Below the pieces are notes generated by a model. It worked only from the letters and a program-made list of their open reading frames with translations. It had not been told where the DNA came from and made no database searches. Positions 12,047 to 45,980 of a DNA stretch of 64,000 nucleotides are shown piece after piece (positions within the stretch are counted from its first letter, which is position 1; every line of letters begins with the position of its first letter). Made by a program: the position numbers and the translations under genes. The stretch lies in assembly GCA_910577205.1 (NCBI GenBank), contig CAJTMA010000008.1:2575-66574 (forward strand), given 5' to 3'. This DNA is from an uncultured Alphaproteobacteria bacterium (lineage in GTDB: Bacteria; Pseudomonadota; Alphaproteobacteria; RF32; CAG-239).

Positions 12047-12550
12047 ATGACTGATAATAAAACAACGCCAAATATTTTCTTTGTTGAAGCTTTATTGCAC
12101 CTACTATTTCTGATTGGTGCTTTTATGTTTATTAATCCTTGGATAAATTTTCCTTATCCTGACGGAAACAAATACGAATTAATCAAATATTACAGCTTAT
12201 TAACCACTGAAGTCAGCACAGTTTTTATATTGATTAGCTTGCCCTTTCCGCTAAAAGTCGACAGAGGACTTTTTTTACTTATAATTCTTGTCACTTTTCC
12301 AACATTTTTTATTTTTGCGAGATCAATACACGAACTTCTTATTGTAATAACTAAAGACAGCCAATCACCAGAAATCAAAATGTTTTTCAACTACTATAGC
12401 TATGCAAAAACACTTCCTCTCATCCTTTACATATTAGGTTACATTAACAAAAAACTGTTCTGGATTATGGCCTCCATCCCTATCGCCTGTTTCTTTTTTT
12501 CTGTCATCTGGTTTGAACTTTTCAGTAAACCTTTCTATTGGAATCAATAA
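12047..12550 (+). CDS. Small 4-TM membrane protein, paralog A (candidate immunity or holin-like)
   Basis: 167 aa with four hydrophobic segments. By eye it is about three quarters identical to 14594-15139, and the first 44 nt are identical. It shares the YILGYINKKLFW motif. Confidence 0.6.
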   Translation: MTDNKTTPNIFFVEALLHLLFLIGAFMFINPWINFPYPDGNKYELIKYYSLLTTEVSTVFILISLPFPLKVDRGLFLLIILVTFPTFFIFARSIHELLIVITKDSQSPEIKMFFNYYSYAKTLPLILYILGYINKKLFWIMASIPIACFFFSVIWFELFSKPFYWNQ

Positions 12551-12635: not shown

Positions 12636-14369
12636 TCAAAAATCTTCTTCGTCTGGTTCATCGTCGTGATTTTCTGATGCATAACTTGAACGGACATAAG
12701 ACTTGATTTCATCTTCCTTTTCATCTTTCAAATGATTAAACGCCGATGTCGTTTTATCACCGATATCATTATCTTCCTTAAGCGCTTCATACCCTGAAAC
12801 CTTTTGCCCAATCTCGTTTAACCCTTTCTGCAAAAAGCTTCCACCATCATTAGGACGAATAGACGACATTGTCTGCTGAAGCGTTTCTTTCTCAAACGGC
12901 TGTTGACGTTTTTGCTCCATCACATTGGATAATCCGCCATACCCAATACTTTGCTTCACCTTATCCACACCATAACGGCTCAAAGCCTCCTTCGTGCGGG
13001 AAGTTGTTTTAGCACCCAAAATACCATCTTCCTTTAAGGCAGAACCATCACCAAAAGAATTCAACCCTTTTTGTAAAGATTTAACTCCCAAAGGTGCAGC
13101 TTGCTTTGCAACAGCTTCATATGCCTGATTAAGTGTCATTCCGCCATTCAGCCGCAACTCACTTCGTTCTTGTGCTTGAGCTTTTTTGGGCTCAGAAACT
13201 AATTGCCGGCCAAATTCATCACGTTTGACAGCCTCCGTACCGTAATAATGATCATACCACTTTCCCTGCATCTCATCCGCCTGCTTTTTACGTCTAATAT
13301 CCTTATTTTCATAAAGATAATGGCGCATTCCGCTTTTCAATTCCTCCTCGGTAATCTGCTCCACCGGCTTATACAAAATATCTTCATCAGGATTATTATG
13401 CTTTTTTAACGCCTCTAAAATAGAATTTTCTTCAACAGAATATTCCTCAGGCTTAGCGATGGCTGACAATTTATCACCGGACAACGGCGTAACCGATTTC
13501 TCATCAGGCTTAGGCGACTGCAGTGCAACTTGACGGTCAGCCCTTTGCGGCAGATTAATCCGTGTCCCCTCTTTCAAGCTCATGTTTTCATTAAAACTGG
13601 CATAGGCCGGATTGATTTGCGCATCACGCTGCAGATTTTGAACCATATCTTCTTTAGAAATCCCATGCTTATCTCCGATTTGCGCCAAATCCTCGCCTGC
13701 TTTGGCTTTCACGCTTCGGGTTTCCAAATTCTTCTCATCATAGCGTCGCAACTTATCTCGATTTTCCCAAATCTCACGCTGCAAATCTTCTTTCGTCAGC
13801 TTCGCCCCATATTTATTAAATAAATCAATACCGATTTCCACCATCGGACTATCTTTACTATCAAAATCAACCCAATCTAAATGTTTTAACCTTTCAACAC
13901 CCCATTGCCCAAAGTCATCAGTCACAGCCCCTCCTTTGGTTACCAAGTCATTATACCCCGCTGCTGCTAAAGTATACCCATAGGAAATATTTCCCCAAAA
14001 ATCATGATCATAAATATACGAATTATCTCCCGGAATCTTACCACCAAACACCACCGGCTGTCGTCCCGAAGAATTAATCTCATCTTTCCGATAATAACTT
14101 GGCAAAATCTTTTTCATCGCTGGTTTATGATCCCATGCCCCTATTCGATCACCTTTACTTGTAGAATTACGGTAAACCTGTTTCAGATTTGATATATCTT
14201 TTGACCGCAATAAATAGCCATTCCCTAAAATTGATTTTTTATTATCCTCTCGCATTCTAAGTATTTCAGGATCACTATGACGTGACATCATATCTTGATA
14301 AACCCTCTCCAATGCTTTTTCATAGTCTTCCACATCAATTTTATTACTTTTAGCAATATCATTTTTCAT
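12636..14369 (-). CDS. LysM plus two PG_binding_1-like repeats protein with an unassigned N-terminal ~230-aa domain (cell-wall-targeting effector or lysin candidate)
   Basis: The start is set at ATG 14369 (MKNDIAKSNK, GGAGAT SD), because the track extension to 14474 runs through terminator hairpins. A LysM-like segment reads GEDLAQIGDKHGISKEDMVQNL..LKEGTRINLP. Two repeats follow: LQKGLNSFGDGSALKEDGILGAKTT and LQKGLNEIGQKVSGYEALKEDNDIGDKTT. There is no signal peptide and the tail is acidic. Confidence 0.7.
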   Translation of the reverse strand: MKNDIAKSNKIDVEDYEKALERVYQDMMSRHSDPEILRMREDNKKSILGNGYLLRSKDISNLKQVYRNSTSKGDRIGAWDHKPAMKKILPSYYRKDEINSSGRQPVVFGGKIPGDNSYIYDHDFWGNISYGYTLAAAGYNDLVTKGGAVTDDFGQWGVERLKHLDWVDFDSKDSPMVEIGIDLFNKYGAKLTKEDLQREIWENRDKLRRYDEKNLETRSVKAKAGEDLAQIGDKHGISKEDMVQNLQRDAQINPAYASFNENMSLKEGTRINLPQRADRQVALQSPKPDEKSVTPLSGDKLSAIAKPEEYSVEENSILEALKKHNNPDEDILYKPVEQITEEELKSGMRHYLYENKDIRRKKQADEMQGKWYDHYYGTEAVKRDEFGRQLVSEPKKAQAQERSELRLNGGMTLNQAYEAVAKQAAPLGVKSLQKGLNSFGDGSALKEDGILGAKTTSRTKEALSRYGVDKVKQSIGYGGLSNVMEQKRQQPFEKETLQQTMSSIRPNDGGSFLQKGLNEIGQKVSGYEALKEDNDIGDKTTSAFNHLKDEKEDEIKSYVRSSYASENHDDEPDEEDF

Positions 14370-14385
14370 AAGCTTTATATCTCCA

Positions 14386-14444
14386 TAAAAAAAATCCGCC
14401 AAAAATGGCGGATAAATAAAAAACCCCGAACCAGACAGTCGAGG
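14386..14444 (-). terminator. Two tandem intrinsic-terminator-like hairpins inside the 5' leader of the LysM gene
   Basis: Read on the minus strand, the first is CCTCGA-ctgtctggt-TCGGGG followed by TTTTTTATTT. The second is ATCCGCC-attttt-GGCGGAT followed by TTTTTTTT. The second U-tract ends 16 nt before the ATG. Confidence 0.6.
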
Positions 14445-14593
14445 AGTTAAGGACACACTTATAGCAAGTGGCAATTAAACTTTTAGACTAAAACCACAAC
14501 AAAATCAAGAATAAAATCCTAAAATCCACAATAAATATAAATTGATTTAAAATTACTTATTGCACTTTAAATTTTAATCTTTACAATAGGCTT

Positions 14594-15139
14594 ATGACTG
14601 ATAATAAAACAACGCCAAATATTTTCTTTGTTGAAGCATTATTACACCTGCTGGTTCTTACTAATGCCTTTATGTTTTTTAACCCGTGGATTAATTTTCC
14701 TTATCCTAGCGAAAACAAATACGAATTAATCAAATACTACAGTTTATTAACAATAGAAGTAAGCTCGGCCTTTCTGCTGATTACCATGCAGTTCCGACTA
14801 AAAGTCGATAGAGGACTTTTTTTACTCATAATTCTTGTCATTTTTCCGACATTCTTTATATTTGGAAAATCAATGCAAGAACTTTTTAATATATTAGCCA
14901 AAGATAACCAATCACCAGAAATCCACACTTTTTTTAAACATTATATTTTTAAATATTATAATCGATATGTATCAATAACCCCTCTAATCATTTACATATC
15001 AGGCTACATTAATAAAAAACTGTTCTGGATTATAGCATCCATCCCCATTGCCTGTTTCTTTTTTTCTGTTATCTGGTTTTTCATATTGAGCGAACCTCTA
15101 TACTATTCTCATCTTGGGGATAATACTTTTACTCGTTAG
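14594..15139 (+). CDS. Small 4-TM membrane protein, paralog B
   Basis: 181 aa. It opens MTDNKTTPNIFFVEALLHLL as in paralog A and carries YISGYINKKLFWIIASIPIACFFFSVIWF. Confidence 0.6.
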   Translation: MTDNKTTPNIFFVEALLHLLVLTNAFMFFNPWINFPYPSENKYELIKYYSLLTIEVSSAFLLITMQFRLKVDRGLFLLIILVIFPTFFIFGKSMQELFNILAKDNQSPEIHTFFKHYIFKYYNRYVSITPLIIYISGYINKKLFWIIASIPIACFFFSVIWFFILSEPLYYSHLGDNTFTR

Positions 15140-15231: not shown

Positions 15232-15705
15232 ATGATAAATCTTAAGAAACTACATCGCCCTTTTCAGCTAGTGCTCCATTTAGCGCTTCTTTTTATCATT
15301 GTGATAAATATCACACCAATAATAAATCACTATATTCCAGGCTCTCAAGACTGCAAAAAAATACATGACTACAGTTTACAAATTGTCTGCCTAAGTACAA
15401 TCTTCTTTCTCATAACAATGCAATGGCAACAGAAAGTTCACAACTTCGCGCTAACATCCATTATCTTATGTACTTTATTTAATATGTTGCTGTCAGCCGC
15501 TTGCATCCACCGGCATTTTATGATTTATACTTTTGGCCCTCTGCCAACGTCAATAGAGCTTATCCTTTTAACTTCATCCAAGATGGGCTTTCTCGCCCTG
15601 CTCATCTATATTTCCGGCTTTATTAACAAAAAACTGTTCTGGAGCTTAGCCACATTTTCACTTTTATATATGCTGTCCGTGTTCATATATTACTGGGATA
15701 TGTAA
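15232..15705 (+). CDS. Small 4-TM membrane protein, divergent paralog C
   Basis: 157 aa. It has the same topology and the YISGFINKKLFW motif but is otherwise diverged. Confidence 0.55.
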   Translation: MINLKKLHRPFQLVLHLALLFIIVINITPIINHYIPGSQDCKKIHDYSLQIVCLSTIFFLITMQWQQKVHNFALTSIILCTLFNMLLSAACIHRHFMIYTFGPLPTSIELILLTSSKMGFLALLIYISGFINKKLFWSLATFSLLYMLSVFIYYWDM

Positions 15706-26002: not shown

Positions 26003-26035
26003 TTGTATCCTAAACCATCAGAGATTAAACCCAAG

Positions 26036-26350
26036 CCTGTACTGCGCAGTAATTTTGAACGCCTCTAAACCCAAAGTTTGGATAGCGTGTGCTCAGAATA
26101 AATTTGGAGAATGAGTTGAGAGCAAGCTGGAATAAACTTGATAAAGGCCTGTGCTGCGAAGTAATTTTTTGAACGACACAACAAACTAAAAGTTTGAATA
26201 GCGTGTGCTCAGAATAAATTTGGAGAATGAGTTGAGAGCAAGCTGGAATAAACTTGATAAAGGCCTGTGCTGCGAAGTAATTTTTTGAACGACACAACAA
26301 ACTAAAAGTTTGAATAGCGTGCGCACAGAATAAATTTGGAGAATGAGTTG
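26036..26350. repeat. Tandem array of about 2.8 copies of a 112-117 bp unit
   Basis: The unit marker cctgt(a/g)ctgcg recurs at 26036, 26148 and 26265. Copies 2 and 3 are nearly identical over ~85 bp, and each unit contains aaatttggagaatgagttgag. Confidence 0.9.
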
Positions 26351-26365
26351 AGTAGTAGGCGTTGA

Positions 26366-26416
26366 GGGCGAAAGTACCGCAGCGTAGACAGACCTACGTG
26401 AGGACACTTTCGACCC
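26366..26416. repeat. Long imperfect palindrome of the dispersed hairpin-core family
   Basis: GGGCGAAAGTaCCgCAGCGTAG-acagac-CTACGTGaGGaCACTTTCGaCCC. It lies between the tandem array and the pyk stop. Confidence 0.7.
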
Positions 26417-27877: not shown

Positions 27878-28043
27878 ATTATTTTATCCTTACTGTTAAA
27901 CCTTTTTATTGCCCGTAATATAACAACAAATATATTAACAAGCTATTTATTTAAACCTTTTGTCATACAAATTTATTACTTGTCAAAAAGCGCGGCCTTT
28001 GCTAAAGTCAGCGAAAACACAAATAACACAAGGAGTGACTAAA

Positions 28044-28286
28044 ATGAGTGAAGTTGGCGGTATTGCCGTAGACAGACTGCGTTCTCTGATTGAAAGAATT
28101 GAACGCCTTGAAGAAGAAAAAGCTGCGATTGCATCTGACATCCGCGACATTTTTGCCGAAGCCAAAGGCGCCGGATTTGACGTTAAAATTATGCGTACGA
28201 TTCTCAAATTGCGCAAAATGAACGCCGCCGACCGCGACGAGCAGGAAATCCTTTTGGAAACCTACCGCAAAGCTTTGGATATGTAA
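28044..28286 (+). CDS. gapR: DUF2312 / GapR-like nucleoid-associated protein
   Basis: The start is at ATG 28044 with an AGGAG SD. The 80-aa product contains LRSLIERIERLEEEKAAIASDIRDIFAEAKGAGFDVKIMR, typical of the alphaproteobacterial UPF0335 family. Confidence 0.8.
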   Translation: MSEVGGIAVDRLRSLIERIERLEEEKAAIASDIRDIFAEAKGAGFDVKIMRTILKLRKMNAADRDEQEILLETYRKALDM

Positions 28287-28289
28287 TCC

Positions 28290-28323
28290 AAAATCCCCGT
28301 TCTGACAGGAACGGGGATTTTTC
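28290..28323. terminator. Bidirectional intrinsic terminator
   Basis: ATCCCCGTTC-tgacag-GAACGGGGAT, flanked by an A-run and TTTTTC. Confidence 0.8.
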
Positions 28324-28331
28324 TACTCATA

Positions 28332-29840
28332 TCAATATTTTACTTGTTCAACAATAACTTTATTACCTAACGCACAAGTATAAACAACACCAAAGTCTGT
28401 TATTTCATAATCAACATAATTATCCGCAGGTGCAAATTTCAAACTATAATAACCATTATCAAATTCTTTAAGCACATCTGTATAACCGTCAGCATTATTA
28501 ATAATAACACATTTCCATATCGGAAAATGGTCAACCATTGTCACAACATTATTTCCGCGCCCCGGACTGATAGTATCGTTACCTTGATAGGAATAAATTT
28601 CATCATCTCCGCTTCCCCCTTCAACACGCGTTTCCGTAGGGCCGCAATGAACTTCATTATTACCGCCAGTACAATAAATGTCAACTGAACGTGCCGGAGG
28701 ATAAGAACCGCTGGCATATATGACATCATCCAGTTCTGTTCCTACAACAACTTTTTTAGCCGTCGTCCCGGTCGGCATTCCGTCTGTTTCGGCAATCCCC
28801 AATTCAGTATAAAGATTCCAAGAGGAAAAAAGATTAGAATAATTTCTCTCCCTATCATTCCCTTTAATTTTCAAAAACTTCCGAACAGCTTCGGTAAAAT
28901 GGGTTTGCATACACCGATAACATTTTTCCTTATAACCGGGAATATTTAAAAGTTTATCTTTCATTCCCTGCCAGCGGGCATTCATAAATGCCACAACCAA
29001 ATTAACATTATCAAAATCATCCGTAACCGGTAAAGAGCAATGAGCATTTTCAGGAGTAGGCAAACTGTTCAAGATTTCCCCCATAAAAGCACAAGCTTCC
29101 ATAAAACGGCGATTTTGTATTCCTTTACTGATATTTCCTGCTTCTGCATTACAATTATACAAAACCTGATACCATGCTTCCATTTTGCCAATAAGTTTAG
29201 ATGTTTCATCACCATCACTGGTATATAAACGCAAAGCATTTTTCATCTTCGGTCCGATATAAGCCTTAGAACCGACCGGAGAATTATAGTTCAAGGAATA
29301 TAATGCCAAACGTTCATTCTTTGTCAAATTATTCCATACAGAAATTTCCGTATTAAAAACATCCTTAACACCGACGATACCATAACCATCATCCACCCCA
29401 CCTAAATAAGCCGCATAAGCCACTTGCTCAAAGGCACGGATATTTGCACCTTCCCAATCTTCTTGATCTTTCAACTTTAATCTGGCTTCATCTTCCGGAT
29501 AATCTGAATTTTCCCCAAAAGGTTCGCCAGCTCGATGAGACAGCAGATATTTCAGTTCAGCCAAAATAGTGCTTTCCCCTTTAATATCCCACTTTCCATC
29601 AACATATTCATAATGTTTTACTTCAGAACTCCAAGTTTTTTTAGTACCTTGATAAAAGCTATTGATATAGTCTTGCAAAAATTTATCATTTTTGTCATCC
29701 AAACGCACACCAATCCCATGGGTAGGATATCCACCATTCTTGTCATCATAATAAATACCATTTCTATCACCTTCCGACTTAAACAAAAAATCTTTTACTT
29801 CTGTTGCCGTCGGATCAATTTTAGTCGCAGTCTCAGTCAT
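28332..29840 (-). CDS. Lysozyme-like (GH24-type motif) protein with C-terminal RTX-like glycine/aspartate repeats; effector candidate
   Basis: 502 aa with no signal peptide. The N-terminus has KSEGDRNGIYYDDKNGGYPTHGIGV (E...Y.D..G..T.G.G), LTKNERLALYSLNYN and IQNRRFMEACAF. The C-terminus has GGSGDDEIYSYQGNDTISPGRGNNVV. Confidence 0.6.
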   Translation of the reverse strand: MTETATKIDPTATEVKDFLFKSEGDRNGIYYDDKNGGYPTHGIGVRLDDKNDKFLQDYINSFYQGTKKTWSSEVKHYEYVDGKWDIKGESTILAELKYLLSHRAGEPFGENSDYPEDEARLKLKDQEDWEGANIRAFEQVAYAAYLGGVDDGYGIVGVKDVFNTEISVWNNLTKNERLALYSLNYNSPVGSKAYIGPKMKNALRLYTSDGDETSKLIGKMEAWYQVLYNCNAEAGNISKGIQNRRFMEACAFMGEILNSLPTPENAHCSLPVTDDFDNVNLVVAFMNARWQGMKDKLLNIPGYKEKCYRCMQTHFTEAVRKFLKIKGNDRERNYSNLFSSWNLYTELGIAETDGMPTGTTAKKVVVGTELDDVIYASGSYPPARSVDIYCTGGNNEVHCGPTETRVEGGSGDDEIYSYQGNDTISPGRGNNVVTMVDHFPIWKCVIINNADGYTDVLKEFDNGYYSLKFAPADNYVDYEITDFGVVYTCALGNKVIVEQVKY

Positions 29841-29876
29841 TGACTTTTTCTCCTTAAAAGTTAATTGTTAGTTAGA

Positions 29877-30905
29877 TTAATAAGATAATAATTTGTTAAT
29901 TTTTTCATTCAAAGGCTTAGCTTTTTCTTCTTGTTTCAAAAACATCAACCTATGAGCCAGAGCGTCCTTACCATAATTATCTTTGAGATGAATATCTGTT
30001 CCGCAATCAATGAACATTTGCACTAATTCCAACGTTAATTCCGTACTTTCCCGTCCCTCTACCGAACTAGATAAAAAGTACATCAGTGCCGTATAACCTT
30101 GCGTATCTTGAACATTCGGATCAATTCCTTTTGCACAGAGAAAAGGCATCATCTCCGACAAATATTTTGCATTAGTCGAAAACAATAAAGAGCGATGTAA
30201 CAAAGGATCAACGTAATTAACCGCTTCCGGTTTCATCTCAATAATTTTTTTCAGAACATTCCTAGGAGTCATCAACACATATGCCCCTCCATAACACTTT
30301 TTATTGGACACATATTCAGTAACATTTGCCCCTTTGCTTAAAACATAATCAAAAACTTCCTTCTTCCGCATTTGATCAAAATTTCTGTCTCCCATATATG
30401 CCGGACAATCATCAACAGCTATTTCTCCGTTAATATCGGCTCCGTCTTTTATTGCCTTATCTGCCAATTTAAAATCACAAATATTTCGGCTATAATCTAT
30501 TATTCCCGTTTCTGCATCTCTTACAAACTTACAAGCAGTGTCGAGGTAAAAACTTAACTGGCGATTTTTTACCCACTGAATCCCGTAGAGATAAATAGAT
30601 TTCAGACAGTCTTTTTTATTTTTAGTTTTCGGATCGCACTCAAATTTATCACGCTTATCTACCCATCTCTTCCATACTTTTCTTGCCGGTGTATAGCCTC
30701 CATCTAAAACAAAAGCCTGATAGCGTTTGATTTTCGTATAACGTTCAGCCAGTTCATTATCCAGTTTGGCTAAATCATCATCGGCACAAACCAGTTTCTC
30801 CGCTTCTGTCTGCACATTAGCGCAATCAAAACTCGGTTTAACCGCAGCCATAATTTCTGCCGAATAAAAAACGCCTGACAAAACAAGCAATAAAAACTTA
30901 AACAT
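29877..30905 (-). CDS. Secreted DUF1311 (LprI lysozyme-inhibitor-like) plus ankyrin-repeat protein; immunity candidate
   Basis: 342 aa. The signal peptide is MFKFLLLVLSGVFYSAEIMA. FDCANVQTEAEKLVCADDDLAKLDNELAERY...WKRWVDKRDKFEC matches the DUF1311 logic. The C-terminal half has ANK-like repeats (GYTALMYFL..FIDCGTDIHLKDNYGKDALAH). Confidence 0.6.
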   Translation of the reverse strand: MFKFLLLVLSGVFYSAEIMAAVKPSFDCANVQTEAEKLVCADDDLAKLDNELAERYTKIKRYQAFVLDGGYTPARKVWKRWVDKRDKFECDPKTKNKKDCLKSIYLYGIQWVKNRQLSFYLDTACKFVRDAETGIIDYSRNICDFKLADKAIKDGADINGEIAVDDCPAYMGDRNFDQMRKKEVFDYVLSKGANVTEYVSNKKCYGGAYVLMTPRNVLKKIIEMKPEAVNYVDPLLHRSLLFSTNAKYLSEMMPFLCAKGIDPNVQDTQGYTALMYFLSSSVEGRESTELTLELVQMFIDCGTDIHLKDNYGKDALAHRLMFLKQEEKAKPLNEKINKLLSY

Positions 30906-40579: not shown

Positions 40580-41872
40580 TTACTTAATCGTAAATATCGT
40601 CTTTTTAGGCTGAGCAGTCAACATCCGCTGGATATAACGCCCTTGATACAAGTTAATACCCAAAGAGTTTCCGACTTCCACGGCTTGCGGATCATCAACC
40701 CGGCAAAGAATCATCTTTGCCCTTTCTGCCCGATTGGCATAATCGGTAAAATGGCTGTCTTCCCGCACCATATCCATAAATGACGGATGCCAGATTATCT
40801 TCAGCAAATCGCCGTTCAATTGCTCGCGGTCAATATATTTCAGCTTATCAACCGTCACCCCGTCAATACAAATTTTATAGCCGCGGTACTGGGCAAAAGT
40901 CTTTGCCAGAATAAAAGCTTTAATATCGCTGAAAATATCAACCAGCTGCAATTCCAAAACTATCGTTGACCGCATTGACGGATTAATGTTTTCATCAAAA
41001 GCCAAAAAGTCATCAGACAAGATTGTTGACACATTCAGGTTCATACTGAAATTATTAGTCAGCGAACCGTCATCATGTTGGCTGACACTGGCCAAAACGC
41101 GTTTATCCAACGTTTCCGTCAAATGCAAAAACAGCCACGGATTAGCCGTCAAATCCACATCCGGCAGCAGCATATCCCGCAAATCGGCAATAGAAACAAA
41201 CACCTCGTCAAAAATCATTTGCGGCGGTGATTTCCCGATAACGGCACAAACCGATTGGCGGCGGATAAGACTGGAGAAATCAGCCATCGCCAAAGTCTTC
41301 TGCACCTTAGCCAGCATCGCAGGGGTCAACTCCCTGCGGAGTTTGCGCGAACCGGCCATCATCGCTGCCTGCGGTGTCTTCGGCGAAACATTGCCGCCGG
41401 CGGCCAATGTCTGATTTTTCAAACTATCCATTAAAGACTGAACTGTCTTTTTAAATTCATCAACCTGCGCCGCCAAATTATAAAATTTAACAAATCCCGC
41501 TTGTTCCAAATCAAAAGCATTTTGCAGCAACGGATCATCATGAAACATAAAACGGATTTTCACCAGACAAGCCTGTATCTCTTCTCCCGAATTTTGGTGA
41601 TAAAACACCACCATATCATCATTCGGCAGCCCAAAAATTTCGCCGCCATTCTTTTTGATGACATTTTCAAAAGTTTCTATCAGACTCTGCCGTTGAAGCG
41701 TCTTAAGCTTCTGGTTTTGCAATTTGCTGAGATGAATATACAACACGCCGTAATTTGGCAGTTCCGCATCTATCTTTGCCAAATAGTCCAATATCAGCGT
41801 ATCCCGTTTAAAAGTGGAATGTTCCGTCACTTTTTCCGGCAGCTTCGGCGTTGTTTTATTAAATAAAAACAT
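40580..41872 (-). CDS. Degenerate GGDEF-like plus degenerate EAL-like protein, paralog 2
   Basis: 430 aa. The EAL-fold landmarks are retained but the catalytic residues are replaced: FDEVFV for EAL, SMNLNVS for NLS, LELQL for E.TE, ICIDGV for DDFG, LKIIW for KID, and LYQGRY for QG. The N-terminal half has GGDEF-like spacing (VLYIHLSKL..GGEIFGLPNDDMVVFY). Confidence 0.5.
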   Translation of the reverse strand: MFLFNKTTPKLPEKVTEHSTFKRDTLILDYLAKIDAELPNYGVLYIHLSKLQNQKLKTLQRQSLIETFENVIKKNGGEIFGLPNDDMVVFYHQNSGEEIQACLVKIRFMFHDDPLLQNAFDLEQAGFVKFYNLAAQVDEFKKTVQSLMDSLKNQTLAAGGNVSPKTPQAAMMAGSRKLRRELTPAMLAKVQKTLAMADFSSLIRRQSVCAVIGKSPPQMIFDEVFVSIADLRDMLLPDVDLTANPWLFLHLTETLDKRVLASVSQHDDGSLTNNFSMNLNVSTILSDDFLAFDENINPSMRSTIVLELQLVDIFSDIKAFILAKTFAQYRGYKICIDGVTVDKLKYIDREQLNGDLLKIIWHPSFMDMVREDSHFTDYANRAERAKMILCRVDDPQAVEVGNSLGINLYQGRYIQRMLTAQPKKTIFTIK

Positions 41873-41881
41873 CCCTCTTCC

Positions 41882-43165
41882 TCACAACAAATCTTCAAGA
41901 ACTTCAGGGTGGATGCAAACAGCCTTCAATGCGCCGGACAACAGCCGCCGCCTTTTCAGACATTGCTGCGCCGTACAGCCGACTGCTCCCGGACAGCGGC
42001 TGCGAACCATGGCTATTTCGATATCATCCATAAACGGCCCTTGAAAAGCGGTAATTCCGTATGAAACACCCCACTTCAGTGCCTTGTCAGAATCACACTT
42101 GGCTAAAATGACTTTCTCTTTGCCAAGCGTTTCAATGATTTCTTTCAAAGCCGGATTAAACGGTTCATCCTCAAGCAGCGGCTCCCAAAACAGCTTAACC
42201 ATATCCGGCTGCAGCGTTTTCAAATTCAACATTTTTAACGCTGCCGGACTGACACCGTCAAGAATAAGCTTATGCCCGCCCTTATGCAAAATCTCCTTGG
42301 CTTCAAAATAAAGTGGCAGATTGTTAAAGACATCTATCAGCTGCACTTCAACCAACACTTTTTGCTCCGGCTTCAAAAAGTTACGGGCAAACTCAACAAA
42401 CTCCCGCGAAAAAACTGAAGACAAATTCAGATTCAGGCTGATTTGCTGCGGCCATTTTTTCAAATCCGCCGCAAAAAAAGCAGCCAGCGTTTTCTTATCC
42501 AAAGCCTGCGTCATATACAGAAACAACCAGCGGTTTGCCACCAAATCCAAATTCCGGTCAAATTGCAGGCTTAAATCTTTAACCGCCACGAAAAACTCTT
42601 GGAACAGAACATCAAACTTGCCCACTCCCTTAATGCGGATAACGCTTTGGCGCTTTACCAACTCCGCAATATCAATCTCATCCAGCTCCGCAATTACATT
42701 ATCAATTTCTCTGGCTTCGACAGGGCGTTTCGCCGGCAGCAACTCACCGTCATTCTGCTGAACATCGCTGACCAGCATTTCTTCAACATACTTATAGAAT
42801 GTCGCAAAATTTTCCGGAAACTCAAAAACCGTGGCAAATTCGCTGCTGTCTTTGCCATGCAAAATCGGATCAGCGGAAAGCCCCTGCCGCAGCTTGGCAA
42901 CGGCCTCGTCCACGGTTTCCTGCGTAATATCCCGCCCCAGAATGACAAAATCGCCGTTTGACATAATATAAAAATAGCCGCGGGCATTCCCCACCACACT
43001 GTCAAACAGCCGCCCCAGAATTTTTACAAATTCCGGATGCCGGTGCTTTGGCTTCAGCTTAGATATGCTGACATACAAAACCGCATAGCCGTACGAATTT
43101 TTGGAAATACGGTCTAACGCATCCAATAAATACTTTTCTGCTTTGCTGCTCTGCTGTCTACTCAT
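41882..43165 (-). CDS. Degenerate GGDEF-like plus degenerate EAL-like protein, paralog 1, with a Cys-rich C-terminal tail
   Basis: 427 aa with AVLYVSISKLK..GYFYIMSNGDFVILG (GGDEF-like). The EAL-like landmarks are FQEFFV, SLNLNLS, VEVQL, LILDGV, VKLFW and AFQGPF. The tail reads CPGAVGCTAQQC..C. Confidence 0.5.
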   Translation of the reverse strand: MSRQQSSKAEKYLLDALDRISKNSYGYAVLYVSISKLKPKHRHPEFVKILGRLFDSVVGNARGYFYIMSNGDFVILGRDITQETVDEAVAKLRQGLSADPILHGKDSSEFATVFEFPENFATFYKYVEEMLVSDVQQNDGELLPAKRPVEAREIDNVIAELDEIDIAELVKRQSVIRIKGVGKFDVLFQEFFVAVKDLSLQFDRNLDLVANRWLFLYMTQALDKKTLAAFFAADLKKWPQQISLNLNLSSVFSREFVEFARNFLKPEQKVLVEVQLIDVFNNLPLYFEAKEILHKGGHKLILDGVSPAALKMLNLKTLQPDMVKLFWEPLLEDEPFNPALKEIIETLGKEKVILAKCDSDKALKWGVSYGITAFQGPFMDDIEIAMVRSRCPGAVGCTAQQCLKRRRLLSGALKAVCIHPEVLEDLL

Positions 43166-43222: not shown

Positions 43223-44362
43223 TCAAGAGTCTTGCTCGGTTGCTAACAGCCGCTGCAATTCACCGGAAACTTCCGCCATCTGATACGGCTTCTGCACAAA
43301 AGCGATATTTTTTCCCGCCGGAATATCCTCCCTTTCGCCGCCGCTGGCAAACATCACTTTTACATTTGGATTTTGCCGTCGCAGCGCTTCATAGGTTTCC
43401 ACTCCGCTCATTCCCGGCATAACCACATCCAGCACCACCGCGTCAATCTCCGGATACCGGGCATATAACTCTATGGCTTCCCGGCCGCTGCCGGCCTCTA
43501 AGACATCCATCCCGGAAATTTTCAGCATTTCCCCCAGCAAACCTCTCAACAGCGGCTCATCATCAACAATCAGTACCCTGCCATTCACTTGCTTTCTCGC
43601 CAAAGGAAAATATACCCTGAAACAACTGCCTTTTCCAACGTCACTATCCACCGTCAAACCCGCAGCATGGCTTTGAACAACCTCCCGAACCACTGACAAC
43701 CCCGTTCCGCCTCCGAATGGTTTTGTTGAAAATGCCGCTTCAAAAATCCGTGACCTCACCGCAGGTTCAATCCCTTTACCGGTATCGCTGACCTCTAAAC
43801 AAACATATTTGCCGGGCTGAACAGCCGCCACTGCTTCCGGCAATTCACCGCCGCTAAAGTCACAATTCGCAGTTTTTATCCGTATTGTGCCGCCTTGCGG
43901 CATGGCCTCAGCGGCATTGACACCCAAATTCATCAGCAGCCGCCGTACCAAATCTGCATTGCCGTTAATTCTGTCTTGCTCTGCTCCGCAAAAACTCTCT
44001 ACAACAATATTGCCTGACACAGAATGCTTCAGCAGGTCAAGAGTTTCACCCACACATTCATTCAGGCTGATAACTTGAAAATCAGGCATTTTATTTTCAG
44101 CCGACAACATACGCCGTCCCTGCTCTCCGGCACGAAGAATAATTTCGGCATAAGATTTTAATTGCGGATTATCCGCTAACTTTAACGCTAATATTTCTGC
44201 TGCGCCGTTCATCCCGGCTAAAAGATTGCGCAAATCATGAACAACCTGCTTAGCTCTACTGACAGCCACATCCGTTTTTCGCTTCAAACAGCACAACATC
44301 ACGCCCAAAACCGTCGCCAAGGCAAAAGCCCCGATTATTATCCCTATTTCCCAGTAATGCAT
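43223..44362 (-). CDS. Hybrid sensor histidine kinase / response regulator with no evident sensor domain
   Basis: 379 aa. One N-terminal TM helix is followed directly by the H-box VVHDLRNLLAG. The N box is LLMNLGVNAAEAM, G1 is DTGKGI and G2 is GGGTGLS. A receiver follows (VLIVDDEP..VVLDVVMPGMSG). Confidence 0.85.
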   Translation of the reverse strand: MHYWEIGIIIGAFALATVLGVMLCCLKRKTDVAVSRAKQVVHDLRNLLAGMNGAAEILALKLADNPQLKSYAEIILRAGEQGRRMLSAENKMPDFQVISLNECVGETLDLLKHSVSGNIVVESFCGAEQDRINGNADLVRRLLMNLGVNAAEAMPQGGTIRIKTANCDFSGGELPEAVAAVQPGKYVCLEVSDTGKGIEPAVRSRIFEAAFSTKPFGGGTGLSVVREVVQSHAAGLTVDSDVGKGSCFRVYFPLARKQVNGRVLIVDDEPLLRGLLGEMLKISGMDVLEAGSGREAIELYARYPEIDAVVLDVVMPGMSGVETYEALRRQNPNVKVMFASGGEREDIPAGKNIAFVQKPYQMAEVSGELQRLLATEQDS

Positions 44363-44528
44363 GATGTTTTCCCGGCAGTCCGATTTCCTATGTTTTAATT
44401 TTACCGCAAGTCCCTTAATGACAGGTTAATCAATCTTTGGTAACCTGAAAATATCGTTTGATTTTTTAATATCTGCCGCTATAATCCGCTTAAAAATAAC
44501 TTGAAATACACTACAGAGGAATTTGCAA

Positions 44529-45980
44529 ATGCTGCCCCCTAAAAATAATTTATTTCCTATCAGAAATGATATCTTAGCCCGCGTTGCTGCCAGTTACTTT
44601 GCTGACCGCTTTGCTCATATTGATGACATCCCGGCTCAGGTTCTGCCTGACGGCTCACAGTGCTATCGCTGCTCTCTGGATAATGACCGTGACGTTGTCC
44701 GCCAGATATGCATGGCTGTCTTGGGAATTTGCCCGGCAGATGAAGAAGGCAAAAACCTGCCGCTGCATGACTATGCTCAACAAGCTTTGGCGCGCACACA
44801 TCTTGAACCGAGCAAAATTTCGGTAATCAATTCTGCCTGTGCTGCCTGCCGCAAAGAACGCTACATCGTCAGCGATTTATGCCGCGCCTGCATTGCCCGC
44901 CCCTGCCAAGTTAATTGCCCGAAAAACGCCATCAGTTTTGTTAACGGCAAAGCTTTTATTGACCAGGATTTGTGCATCAAATGCGGCCGCTGCCACGATG
45001 TTTGCCCTTATTCTGCAATCATTAAAAATGTAATTCCATGTGAAGATTCTTGCCCAGTCGGCGCCATCAGCAAAGACCAGACCGGTAAAGAACACATTGA
45101 TACCGAAAAATGTATTTCCTGCGGCAAATGCTTGAAATCATGCCCCTTCGGCGCGATTGTCGAACGCTCCCAAATGGTAGATGTTCTCAAGGCTATGCAT
45201 GACACAGACAAACACGTTGTCGCCATGATTGCCCCGGCTGTTGTCGGCCAGTTTGCCGGCAATGTAAATAATCTTGTCGGTGCTCTGAAAGCCGCCGGAT
45301 TTGACGATGTTATCGAAGTTGCCGTTGGCGCAGATATCACCACAGAAAAAGAAGCTGCCGAATTTATCGAACGCATGGAAGCTGGTGAAAAATTCATGAC
45401 AACATCCTGCTGCCCGGCTTATTTCCGTGCGGCTCAACTGCACATCCCGGAAATCAAAGAATATGTTTCTTCAACCAAAACCCCGATGTATTACACCGCC
45501 GAATTGGTTAAACAGGAACGTCCAGACAGCGTCGCCGTTTTTGTCGGCCCATGTTTTGCCAAACGTGTTGAAGCCGAAACAGATCCTAATGTCGATTATG
45601 TGCTGACCTTTGAAGAAATGAATGCTATTTTTGCCGGCGCCAGCATTGATGTTGCTGCCGCAACCCCTGCTGAATTCACTAAAATTTCCTGCGCACAAGG
45701 ACGCGGCTTCCCGCTTACCGGAGGCGTTGCCGGCGCAGTCGCATCTTTGGTTGAGGGTAAGGTTGACATCCGTCCTGAAAAGATTGACGGCTTAAGCACC
45801 GAAAACATCAAACTGCTCAAGCGCTATGCCGCTAAAGGCTGTGACTGCAATATGCTTGAAGTCATGAGCTGCCCCGGCGGCTGCATTTCCGGCCCGGGCT
45901 GTATTGCTATGCCCAATAAAGCGACCATTCAGGTAAAGAATTATACCGCTCAAGGCGCTGATTTGAAAAACAAAGCATAA
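44529..45980 (+). CDS. [FeFe]-hydrogenase-family protein with N-terminal ferredoxin-like clusters
   Basis: ATG 44529 has AGAGGA upstream; the track starts at TTG 44523. Several CxxCxxCxxxCP clusters are present. The H-cluster motifs are TTSCCPAY, GPCFAKRVE and EVMSCPGGCISGPGC. Confidence 0.8.
   Translation: MLPPKNNLFPIRNDILARVAASYFADRFAHIDDIPAQVLPDGSQCYRCSLDNDRDVVRQICMAVLGICPADEEGKNLPLHDYAQQALARTHLEPSKISVINSACAACRKERYIVSDLCRACIARPCQVNCPKNAISFVNGKAFIDQDLCIKCGRCHDVCPYSAIIKNVIPCEDSCPVGAISKDQTGKEHIDTEKCISCGKCLKSCPFGAIVERSQMVDVLKAMHDTDKHVVAMIAPAVVGQFAGNVNNLVGALKAAGFDDVIEVAVGADITTEKEAAEFIERMEAGEKFMTTSCCPAYFRAAQLHIPEIKEYVSSTKTPMYYTAELVKQERPDSVAVFVGPCFAKRVEAETDPNVDYVLTFEEMNAIFAGASIDVAAATPAEFTKISCAQGRGFPLTGGVAGAVASLVEGKVDIRPEKIDGLSTENIKLLKRYAAKGCDCNMLEVMSCPGGCISGPGCIAMPNKATIQVKNYTAQGADLKNKA

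Follow-up and report, generated by a model that had tools for sequence, protein, structure and literature searches.

A gene pair encoding a putative type-I-secreted muramidase and a candidate periplasmic immunity protein in an uncultured alphaproteobacterium

The stretch of DNA analysed here (the window; 64,000 nucleotides of contig CAJTMA010000008.1) derives from an uncultured alphaproteobacterium of the RF32 lineage and carries, on its minus strand, two adjacent genes. One encodes a 502-amino-acid (aa) protein with a T4-lysozyme-type (GH24) domain and RTX repeats, hereafter the effector; the other, directly upstream of it, encodes a 342-aa protein, hereafter the partner, in which a signal peptide is followed by a DUF1311/LprI domain and ankyrin repeats. 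Judged from sequence comparison, the two genes probably form a toxin-immunity cassette, i.e., a type-I-secreted muramidase toxin and a periplasmic immunity protein. An earlier reading of the window (the first-pass annotation) had proposed an antibacterial effector with its cognate immunity protein, and this proposal is now supported by the adjacency of the two genes in related loci, by their hypervariability, by the matching of their alleles and by the linkage of homologous pairs to exporter genes in relatives. Of the refutation tests named in that annotation, all those run here turned out in favour of the proposal.

Adjacency of the two genes and replacement of their alleles

Both open reading frames (ORFs) named in the first-pass annotation are present and co-oriented, and they form, as it stated, an A+T-rich pair (36.9% GC, compared with 44.0% for the window and 44-45% for the flanks) separated by a short spacer, in which a terminator scan found no terminator. 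The partner and effector genes are probably co-transcribed. The genes and the segment exchanged between alleles, which is described below, are as follows:

29877-30905, minus strand: partner gene (ORF), 342 aa; signal peptide, DUF1311/LprI domain, ankyrin repeats
29841-29876, minus strand: intergenic spacer of 36 nt, with an AAGGAG ribosome-binding site before the second gene
28332-29840, minus strand: effector gene (ORF), 502 aa; GH24-like muramidase, helical linker, RTX beta-roll and C-terminal beta domain, no signal peptide
30745-30848, minus strand: conserved left anchor, partner codons 20-54 (KPSFDC..EKLVC.DD.LAKLDNELAE), from blastn against L009 and L001
28368-30744, minus strand: replaceable cassette of 2.38 kb, partner codon 55 to the end plus the effector without its last 12 codons, from blastn against L012

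The effector has 19 homologues and the partner 11 (related loci are denoted here by L numbers and related proteins by P numbers). In every related locus in which the upstream gene is readable (L001-L006, L008, L009, L012, L015, L016 and L017), a same-strand gene for a DUF1311 protein with a signal peptide lies directly upstream of the effector homologue; the co-occurrence of the pair in other genomes, whose absence the first-pass annotation would have taken as a refutation, is thus observed. These upstream proteins have the motif PSFDC...EKL[IV]C.D.EL in common and are built as follows:

L001, L009-L011, L012/L013, L017: DUF1311-ankyrin, at the same chromosomal site as in the window
L002, L003: DUF1311 only, approx. 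155 aa
L004: DUF1311 plus an unrelated 320-aa domain
L005, L006/L007, L008: DUF1311-ankyrin
L015: two DUF1311 domains plus ankyrin
L016: DUF1311-ankyrin

L014 is the one locus in which the upstream gene cannot be read; the contig end cuts it, and the visible part lacks the DUF1311 motif.

The gene order pntAB, chrA, chrA, pair, gapR, pyk is common to the window and three relatives, and in these relatives the flanking proteins are 71-98% identical to those of the window, compared with 39% for the partner and 43-60% for the effector. Among all loci compared, the corresponding values are 71-99% for the flanking proteins, 34-39% for the partner and approx. 46-56% for the GH24 domain. The pair is therefore far more variable than its flanks, and this variability is sharply bounded. 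In L012, which comes from a near-conspecific genome, the pyruvate kinase is 99% identical to that of the window and the body of the partner only 36%. At the nucleotide level, the two sequences agree at 96% as far as position 30745 (partner codon 54) and at 92% from 28367 onwards (the final 12 codons of the effector); the interval between these points cannot be aligned, apart from a patch of 67% within the conserved C-lobe of the lysozyme. L009 and L001 likewise have the left boundary at 30745, and in them the left anchor is conserved at 85-87% nucleotide identity, compared with 72-77% for the flanks. This anchor is a candidate recombination site. Likewise, the partners of L002 and L006, which belong to a different lineage, are identical up to "...DDELAK" and then diverge; these two loci occupy one chromosomal site and carry different pairs.

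It might be argued that the pair is a housekeeping autolysin with its own periplasmic inhibitor, acting only on the wall of the producer, by analogy with the role of LprI-domain proteins in peptidoglycan homeostasis. The pair does lie among housekeeping genes at a fixed chromosomal site, and a periplasmic LprI-domain protein of Salmonella is reported to control cell-wall homeostasis (PMC7933661). However, an identity of 34-47% for the pair next to 71-99% for its flanks would not be expected of such a system, nor would cassette swapping within one species or neighbours such as giant RTX genes and type I exporters. Moreover, the usual route into its own periplasm would be closed to an enzyme that lacks a signal peptide and carries RTX repeats. 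We consider this explanation very unlikely.

The alleles of the two genes were assigned in five loci:

Window: partner A, GH24 A, middle A, tail A
L017: partner A, GH24 A, middle A, tail chimeric (69% identical to the window tail)
L009, L012: partner B, GH24 B, middle B, tail B
L001: partner B, GH24 B, middle A, tail A

The partner allele tracks the lysozyme-domain allele in all five, two natural chimeras among them, while the C-terminal modules re-assort. Specific recognition of the enzyme domain by the partner would predict this pattern. The pattern bears on a further explanation, according to which the enzyme serves against Gram-positive competitors or for nutrient release and the partner is a general shield against foreign lysozymes, for example those of an animal host. 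A secreted muramidase directly reaches only walls that lack an outer membrane, the relative L016 comes from a record labelled gut metagenome, and the LprI protein of Mycobacterium tuberculosis is described as a lysozyme inhibitor. A general shield, however, would have no need to change its allele together with the neighbouring enzyme domain, and its divergence to 36% between genomes with 99% identical pyruvate kinases would be unexpected; the strict adjacency in every locus read also argues for a specific partnership. Such a shield is unlikely.

In L012 (1533-3046) and L013, the type B effector gene is split, with a 42-aa ORF that ends just past the catalytic Glu and a 414-aa ORF that represents the rest, and the upstream partner gene is intact. 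The gene calls are identical in two independent samples. This looks like decay of the effector with retention of immunity.

One further observation concerns a single site (SfsA, M24 peptidase, RadC, pair, GDYXXLXY, DUF2157, SulP) that holds quite different pairs in two metagenome-assembled genomes (L002 vs. L006/L007). One pair consists of a 155-aa DUF1311-only partner and a canonical PF00959-type effector, the other of a 407-aa DUF1311-ankyrin partner and an effector of the insertion-bearing type. It seems that the C-terminal domain of the partner varies with the insertion in the N-lobe of the enzyme.

The effector carries a divergent GH24 domain

On sequence and predicted structure, we conclude that the N-terminal domain of the effector is a putative, divergent GH24 muramidase with a family-specific insertion (approx. 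residues 46-130), fused to a short RTX region and a type-I-type C-terminus. Its parts, with secondary structure taken from an AlphaFold2 (AF2) model, are as follows:

29055-29840, minus strand: divergent GH24 (T4-lysozyme-type) domain, residues 1-262, from profile, relatives and fold
29709-29774, minus strand: catalytic motif E23-x8-D32-x7-T40-H-G-I-G, equivalent by alignment to T4 lysozyme E11/D20/T26
28836-29054, minus strand: helical middle region, residues 263-335, conserved in the family, with AF2 helices at 276-298 and 307-325
28536-28835, minus strand: RTX beta-roll, residues 336-435, from Pfam, PDB and fold matches
28335-28535, minus strand: C-terminal beta domain, residues 436-502, with AF2 strands within 443-499

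In the motif SEGDRNGIYYDDKNGGYPTHGIG, residues E23, D32 and T40 pair with the three T4 lysozyme residues at the same Glu-Asp spacing. All three are kept in every effector homologue that has the N-terminus, and the Glu, Asp and Thr are invariant or nearly so among 40 distant relatives. The AF2 model (pLDDT 85.5, pTM 0.85) consists of an alpha/beta N-lobe, a helical C-lobe, a helical linker, a beta-roll and a beta domain.

When the window proteins were scanned directly with Pfam and NCBIfam, their lysozyme, LprI and ankyrin domains all stayed below threshold. Because the direct PF00959 score does not reach the cut-off, the GH24 assignment rests on profile, relative and fold evidence. A family profile covering the first 335 residues matched five PDB entries, all of them GH24 lysozymes or endolysins, and the best match (7m5i, E = 0.0025) aligns in register over both lobes; the homologue in L002 scores 33.4 bits against PF00959, above the cut-off. 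The GH24 landmarks read in the first-pass annotation therefore stand, given the conserved triad, a profile that finds only GH24 lysozymes in the PDB and a relative that passes Pfam. A search of 1.84 billion cluster representatives, for which the profile was built without two rows that came from the loci, returned 144 proteins at E <= 0.001. Among the 40 distant matches scanned, 35 are PF00959 members and 7 also have RTX repeats. Alignment of the effector family with this distant set by HHalign gave 99.8% (E = 1e-28, residues 12-263), where the set had been chosen by the same profile, so that only its Pfam membership counts as independent evidence. With the single sequence of T4 lysozyme, HHalign gave the family profile a probability of 4% and aligned only the catalytic motif. 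Foldseek, queried with the effector model, returned T4 lysozyme, T4 gp5 and the endolysin EC340 (target-normalised TM 0.53-0.59, E 0.03-0.4), a set of matches that is statistically weak but consistent in kind; the large RMSD of these matches goes with a query that is the whole three-domain model. None of the effector and partner homologues listed has a source annotation name, and a family of this small size, without names, is easily missed in routine annotation.

GH24 is the classic phage lysozyme family, the GC content of the region is below that of its surroundings and the partner matches PHROG families of unknown function, so that the module might be what is left of a prophage lysis cassette, namely an endolysin and an accessory gene. 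The effector itself, however, has no PHROG match, which argues against a recent origin from a phage endolysin. Phage genes, an integrase or a tRNA were not found nearby, RTX repeats and linkage to type I exporters are not phage features, and the site is syntenic across several genomes. A phage remnant is thus extremely improbable.

The partner combines a DUF1311 domain with ankyrin repeats

The partner is best described, from its sequence, as a putatively Sec-exported, disulfide-rich DUF1311-ankyrin protein, with the following parts:

30843-30905, minus strand: signal peptide, approx. residues 1-21 (MFKFLLLVLSGVFYSAEIMAA), cleavage site read by eye, no lipobox; 12-residue Kyte-Doolittle mean 2.24
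30540-30836, minus strand: DUF1311/LprI-type domain, residues 24-122, with conserved Cys28/40/90/100; weak Pfam match, with a homologue that passes PF07007
29880-30470, minus strand: ankyrin-repeat region, residues 146-342, from PDB phmmer, Foldseek and Pfam

The first-pass annotation had assigned all three parts, and each is upheld, the first by the hydrophobic leader, the second by PF07007 homology through L004 and the third by sequence and fold. With a weak direct score, the DUF1311 assignment rests on the L004 partner, which passes the PF07007 cut-off (30.8 bits over model positions 1-106) and to which the N-terminal 125 aa of the window partner are related by BLASTP at E = 7e-19 over 131 aligned positions. 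Weak LprI matches are also found in 10 of the 12 partner family members. The leader is followed by the motif KPSFDC..TEAEKLVC.DDDLAKLD...W...RD.FEC...C, with four nearly invariant cysteines within the domain, and 8 of the 10 cysteines of the window protein are invariant or nearly so in the partner alignment. The conserved cysteines and the signal peptide fit a periplasmic protein. A search of the PDB with the DUF1311 profile returned no DUF1311 structure, only designed helical bundles at E > 0.1.

For the ankyrin region, phmmer against the PDB finds designed ankyrin proteins at 1e-12, and Foldseek, applied to the AF2 model (pLDDT 77.7), finds DARPins at 3e-5 and Bd3460 of Bdellovibrio (5cea) at a target-normalised TM of 0.62-0.63 (E approx. 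1e-3). Ank families of Pfam are matched by all 12 partner family members, at best with 1e-8. Weak NCBIfam matches to ankyrin effectors of the Legionella Dot/Icm type (E = 5e-4 and 4e-3, against cut-offs of 500-600 bits) were rejected as generic ankyrin similarity; the signal peptide and conserved cysteines indicate a periplasmic location for the partner, not one in a host cell.

Proposed export of the effector

The RTX-like nonapeptides that the first-pass annotation noticed near the C-terminus of the effector, GGSGDDEIY among them, are confirmed by PF00353, which reaches 30.7 bits (cut-off 23) over residues 405-433 of 502 (nt 28542-28628); a further nonapeptide is TGGNNEVHC. The beta-roll finds CyaA RTX block V and AlgE6 R-modules in PDB and Foldseek searches, and the fold of the C-terminal domain resembles the C-terminal domains of serralysins and the AlgE R-modules (Foldseek). 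This domain presumably carries the type I secretion signal. The helical middle region that precedes the beta-roll has M286, N287, Y303 and F315 as its conserved residues. The lack of a signal peptide is likewise corroborated, the N-terminus of the effector not being hydrophobic (highest 12-residue Kyte-Doolittle mean -0.03, vs. 2.24 in the partner), and Pfam/NCBIfam scans of the effector found none of the delivery domains PAAR, VgrG, Hcp, MIX, FIX, WHIX or Rhs.

Exporter genes are linked to the pair in two relatives. In L015, the order is an ABC transporter gene with a C39 domain, a membrane-fusion gene of the AprE/CyaD type, small genes, the partner, a 722-aa GH24-RTX protein and a 3938-aa RTX protein; in L016, C39-type ABC and AprE/CyaD-type membrane-fusion genes adjoin the genes for a DUF1311-ankyrin protein and for a GH24-RTX protein of 3004 aa. 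Type I secretion genes thus adjoin homologous pairs, in agreement with the effector-immunity reading: the window partner is related to the partners of L015 and L016 at E = 2e-34 and 5e-22, respectively, and the window effector is 37% identical to P0038 over 260 aa (E = 2e-36). By analogy, the effector of the window genome would also leave the cell by a type I system. The surroundings of the pairs in L002, L003 and L005-L009 yielded no genes for type I, type VI or other secretion.

In all eight of the closest long relatives scanned, which reach 3004 aa in length, RTX repeats follow the N-terminal domain. At the point where the 502-aa effector ends, long relatives continue with a Pro-rich linker and a SPLVLDLDGDGIE module. 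This self-processing module (SPM, PF26745) is recorded after the GH24 module in P0011, P0015-P0017, P0038 and P0040, and none is present in the window effector. In the sequences read, the residue before the Pro of the module is Ser, vs. Asp in FrpC.

Some of the related loci have further features of their own. L003 (8038-18937) has three near-identical copies of the module (SPLVLDLDGDGIET...). One occupies the 3' end of the gene for the GH24 effector, a second lies in a small ORF upstream, and the third is close to the 5' end of a neighbouring 1950-aa RTX gene. The repetition of the module in the effector 3' end and the RTX gene hints that such modules act as recombination handles. Similar module arrays lie beside giant RTX genes in L015 and L005, and the arrays of these three loci may represent a store of N-terminal cassettes for recombination onto a large RTX scaffold. 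In L016 (1-21015), the 3004-aa GH24-SPM-RTX gene, the partner and the exporter genes stand among conjugation genes (relaxase, TraG/VirD4-type coupling protein, TrbI), and the system may ride on a mobile element in that organism.

Relation to known systems

The first-pass annotation regarded the pairing of domains as not described. This was too broad, since DUF1311 immunity proteins beside lysozyme-like type VI secretion system (T6SS) effectors have been reported (PMC9796082, PMC12135965, PMC12981562); what holds is the narrower statement that no description of a GH24-RTX/DUF1311-ankyrin pair was found in a literature search that was not exhaustive. DUF1311/LprI proteins encoded next to lysozyme-like type VI effectors have been proposed as immunity partners for hcp-island genes of Pantoea (PMC9796082) and for WHIX effectors (PMC12135965). 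In the Etse4/Etsi4 pair of enterohaemorrhagic Escherichia coli, the DUF1311 protein was tested and rescues the toxicity of a cell-wall effector that acts in the periplasm, and an intact immunity gene is also kept beside a broken effector (PMC12981562). These systems resemble the present pair in that a peptidoglycan-targeting toxin is encoded beside a DUF1311/LprI protein with a signal peptide, and in the retention of immunity beside a broken effector (L012 here). They differ from it in their carrier, because the window effector has no PAAR, VgrG, Hcp or WHIX domain and a type-I-type RTX C-terminus in their place; furthermore, its toxin domain is N-terminal, its immunity gene lies upstream and the immunity protein is fused to ankyrin repeats.

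For the RTX bacteriocins of Alphaproteobacteria (Rhizobium leguminosarum RzcA and relatives), a review describes the mechanism as uncharacterised and mentions no immunity partner, and a single "putative lysozyme" was listed among predicted RTX proteins in 2010 (PMC3034196). By description, the present module is like them in its RTX repeats, proposed antibacterial role, proposed type I export and occurrence in Alphaproteobacteria, and unlike them in having a catalytic domain that can be named and a candidate immunity protein.

FrpC of Neisseria meningitidis and "clip-and-link" RTX proteins of its type contain a self-processing module triggered by calcium (PMC7078468, PMC5233953), and an effector-immunity hypothesis has been suggested for FrpC/FrpD (PMC6759196). 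The likeness lies in an N-terminal cargo followed by RTX repeats, in type I secretion and a neighbour that binds the N-terminal domain, both of which are proposed for the present pair, and in the SPM that follows the GH24 module in P0016, P0038 and P0040. The 502-aa effector, in contrast, ends before the point at which the SPM would begin, and FrpD is an outer-membrane lipoprotein of a different fold. This system also lends some weight to the idea that the partner is not an inhibitor at all: FrpD binds FrpC's N-terminal domain very tightly and has an unsettled role (PMC5233953, PMC6759196), the long effector relatives have the self-processing module of FrpC, and ankyrin repeats are general protein-binding scaffolds. 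However, DUF1311 proteins have tested and proposed immunity roles against cell-wall effectors, an intact partner beside a broken effector fits retained immunity and not a helper without a client, and one-step export by a type I system would give a helper in the periplasm no chance to meet its substrate. A partner of this kind is distinctly unlikely.

Ankyrin-type protection from a peptidoglycan hydrolase has a precedent in Bdellovibrio bacteriovorus, in which the ankyrin protein Bd3460 protects the producer from its own secreted enzyme Bd3459 (PMC4686830). Bd3460 is also a structural match to the ankyrin region of the partner, for which the common ankyrin fold may be the sole reason. The two systems differ in that Bd3459 is a DD-endopeptidase instead of a muramidase and Bd3460 lacks DUF1311. 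LprI of M. tuberculosis (Rv1541c), the founding member of PF07007, belongs to the same DUF1311 fold family and is a proposed lysozyme inhibitor, but it is a lipoprotein reported to act on host lysozyme, whereas the window partner lacks a lipobox, carries fused ankyrin repeats and has a bacterial GH24 protein as its counterpart.

Pesticin of Yersinia pestis is a bacteriocin with a T4-lysozyme-like muramidase killing domain, which is neutralised by the periplasmic protein Pim. Its N-terminal domains serve receptor binding and translocation (FyuA/TonB), and it is not known to have RTX repeats. By description, a muramidase killing domain and periplasmic immunity, as proposed for the present pair, are found in pesticin/Pim, and the two differ in the uptake domain, which is present in pesticin and was not identified in the window effector.

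A model for the pair and the evidence against it

In the proposed mechanism, the effector would be made in the cytoplasm without a signal peptide and leave the cell unfolded, in a single step, through a type I system that recognises its C-terminus; once outside, it would fold upon binding of calcium by its RTX repeats. The first 260 residues would act as a GH24 muramidase that cuts the glycan strands of peptidoglycan. The partner would be exported by Sec to the periplasm, where its DUF1311/LprI domain and ankyrin repeats may bind and block the muramidase domain of the matching allele, and the producer and its kin would thereby be shielded from enzyme that reaches their cell wall. The body of the immunity protein and the muramidase domain would be exchanged together by recombination, with the first 54 codons of the immunity gene as the left anchor and a right junction inside or at the end of the effector gene. 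As a consequence of this joint exchange, strains of one species would carry different, probably non-cross-protecting alleles.

Several points weigh against this model. A one-step type I substrate bypasses the periplasm of its producer, and a periplasmic immunity protein makes sense only if the enzyme enters Gram-negative cells, for which it would have to cross the outer membrane of the target. No receptor-binding, uptake or translocation module was recognised in the effector; the helical linker and the C-terminal beta domain are the sole candidates for an entry function. Type I, type VI or other secretion genes were not found among the window ORFs scanned, and the RTX nonapeptides of the effector are degenerate and number only about four or five. 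The matching of alleles could have another cause, since the effector gene has its 5' end right next to the partner gene and one recombination tract could produce the same co-inheritance without selection. With regard to domain assignment, the effector scores 12.9 bits against PF00959 (E = 0.14, residues 170-247 only; cut-off 22.3), and Foldseek found no match with E < 0.01 for the whole effector model. The partner scores 14 bits against PF07007 (E = 0.067, model positions 1-47 only; cut-off 22) and 22.2 bits against Ank_2 (cut-off 27.3).

A broader interpretation, which we put forward tentatively and to which we give a little less than even chances, is that the locus represents, in a short version, a class of type-I-secreted polymorphic toxins not described before, the mirror image of contact-dependent growth inhibition (CDI) and Rhs systems. 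Because the type I secretion signal is C-terminal, the variable toxin domain would be N-terminal; the immunity gene would lie upstream, and the cassette would be swapped between two conserved stretches, i.e., the leader of the immunity gene with the first DUF1311 helix on one side, and the helical linker with the RTX region (or, in the long relatives, the self-processing module) on the other. The cassette arrays of relatives would stand beside giant RTX genes and exporters. No description of an N-terminal toxin/upstream-immunity cassette, or of its allele replacement within a species, was found in the literature by a search that was not exhaustive.

Flanking genes and other features of the window

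The housekeeping flanks named in the first-pass annotation could be identified. GapR is encoded at 27960-28286 on the plus strand (PF10073, 113 bits), and the chrA flank consists of two chrA halves, recognised by synteny with PF02417 genes in related loci. The statement that the pair is bounded by strong terminators is correct for one side only: a terminator-like site lies downstream of the effector, and none was found by the scan between chrA and the partner gene.

28293-28312, minus strand: intrinsic-terminator-like hairpin and T-run from the terminator scan (sequence AAAAATCCCCGTTCCTGTCAGAACGGGGATTTT), 3' of the effector stop and before the convergent gapR

Beyond gapR, an intergenic 116-bp tandem repeat (26073-26352; 2.4 copies, 98% matches) lies downstream of the pyruvate kinase gene. 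It yields spurious ORFs at 26025-26407 and is partly common to L012 and L009.

Elsewhere in the window, a 612-aa ORF (12636-14474, minus strand) matches the Pfam family Ntox44, "bacterial toxin 44", over residues 112-221 with 31.6 bits (cut-off 24). Three small ORFs for multi-pass membrane proteins (12047-12550, 14594-15139 and 15232-15705, all on the plus strand) flank it and seem related on inspection by eye; a comparison of two of them gave 71% identity (E = 1e-86). The region resembles a second toxin locus, accompanied by an array of immunity-gene candidates. Two adjacent paralogues of 430 and 427 aa (40580-41872 and 41882-43165, both on the minus strand; 26% identity, E = 1e-45) have no Pfam match at 1e-5 and adjoin a hybrid histidine kinase/response-regulator gene at 43223-44362. 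The large subunit of an Fe-only hydrogenase with ferredoxin domains is encoded at 44523-45980 on the plus strand and, together with GapR, suggests an anaerobic alphaproteobacterium.

Implications

Type I secretion is rarely viewed as a route for enzyme toxins between bacteria. The module described here names a catalytic domain, a candidate antidote and natural allele swaps, including chimeras, that predict which antidote fits which enzyme. It also raises the question of the route by which a secreted 55-kDa muramidase would reach the Gram-negative wall, as the periplasmic antidote implies. If the tentative mirror-image interpretation is true, the RTX bacteriocins of Alphaproteobacteria would gain a defined killing mechanism together with immunity, and the view of FrpC-type RTX proteins as antibacterial effectors would be supported.

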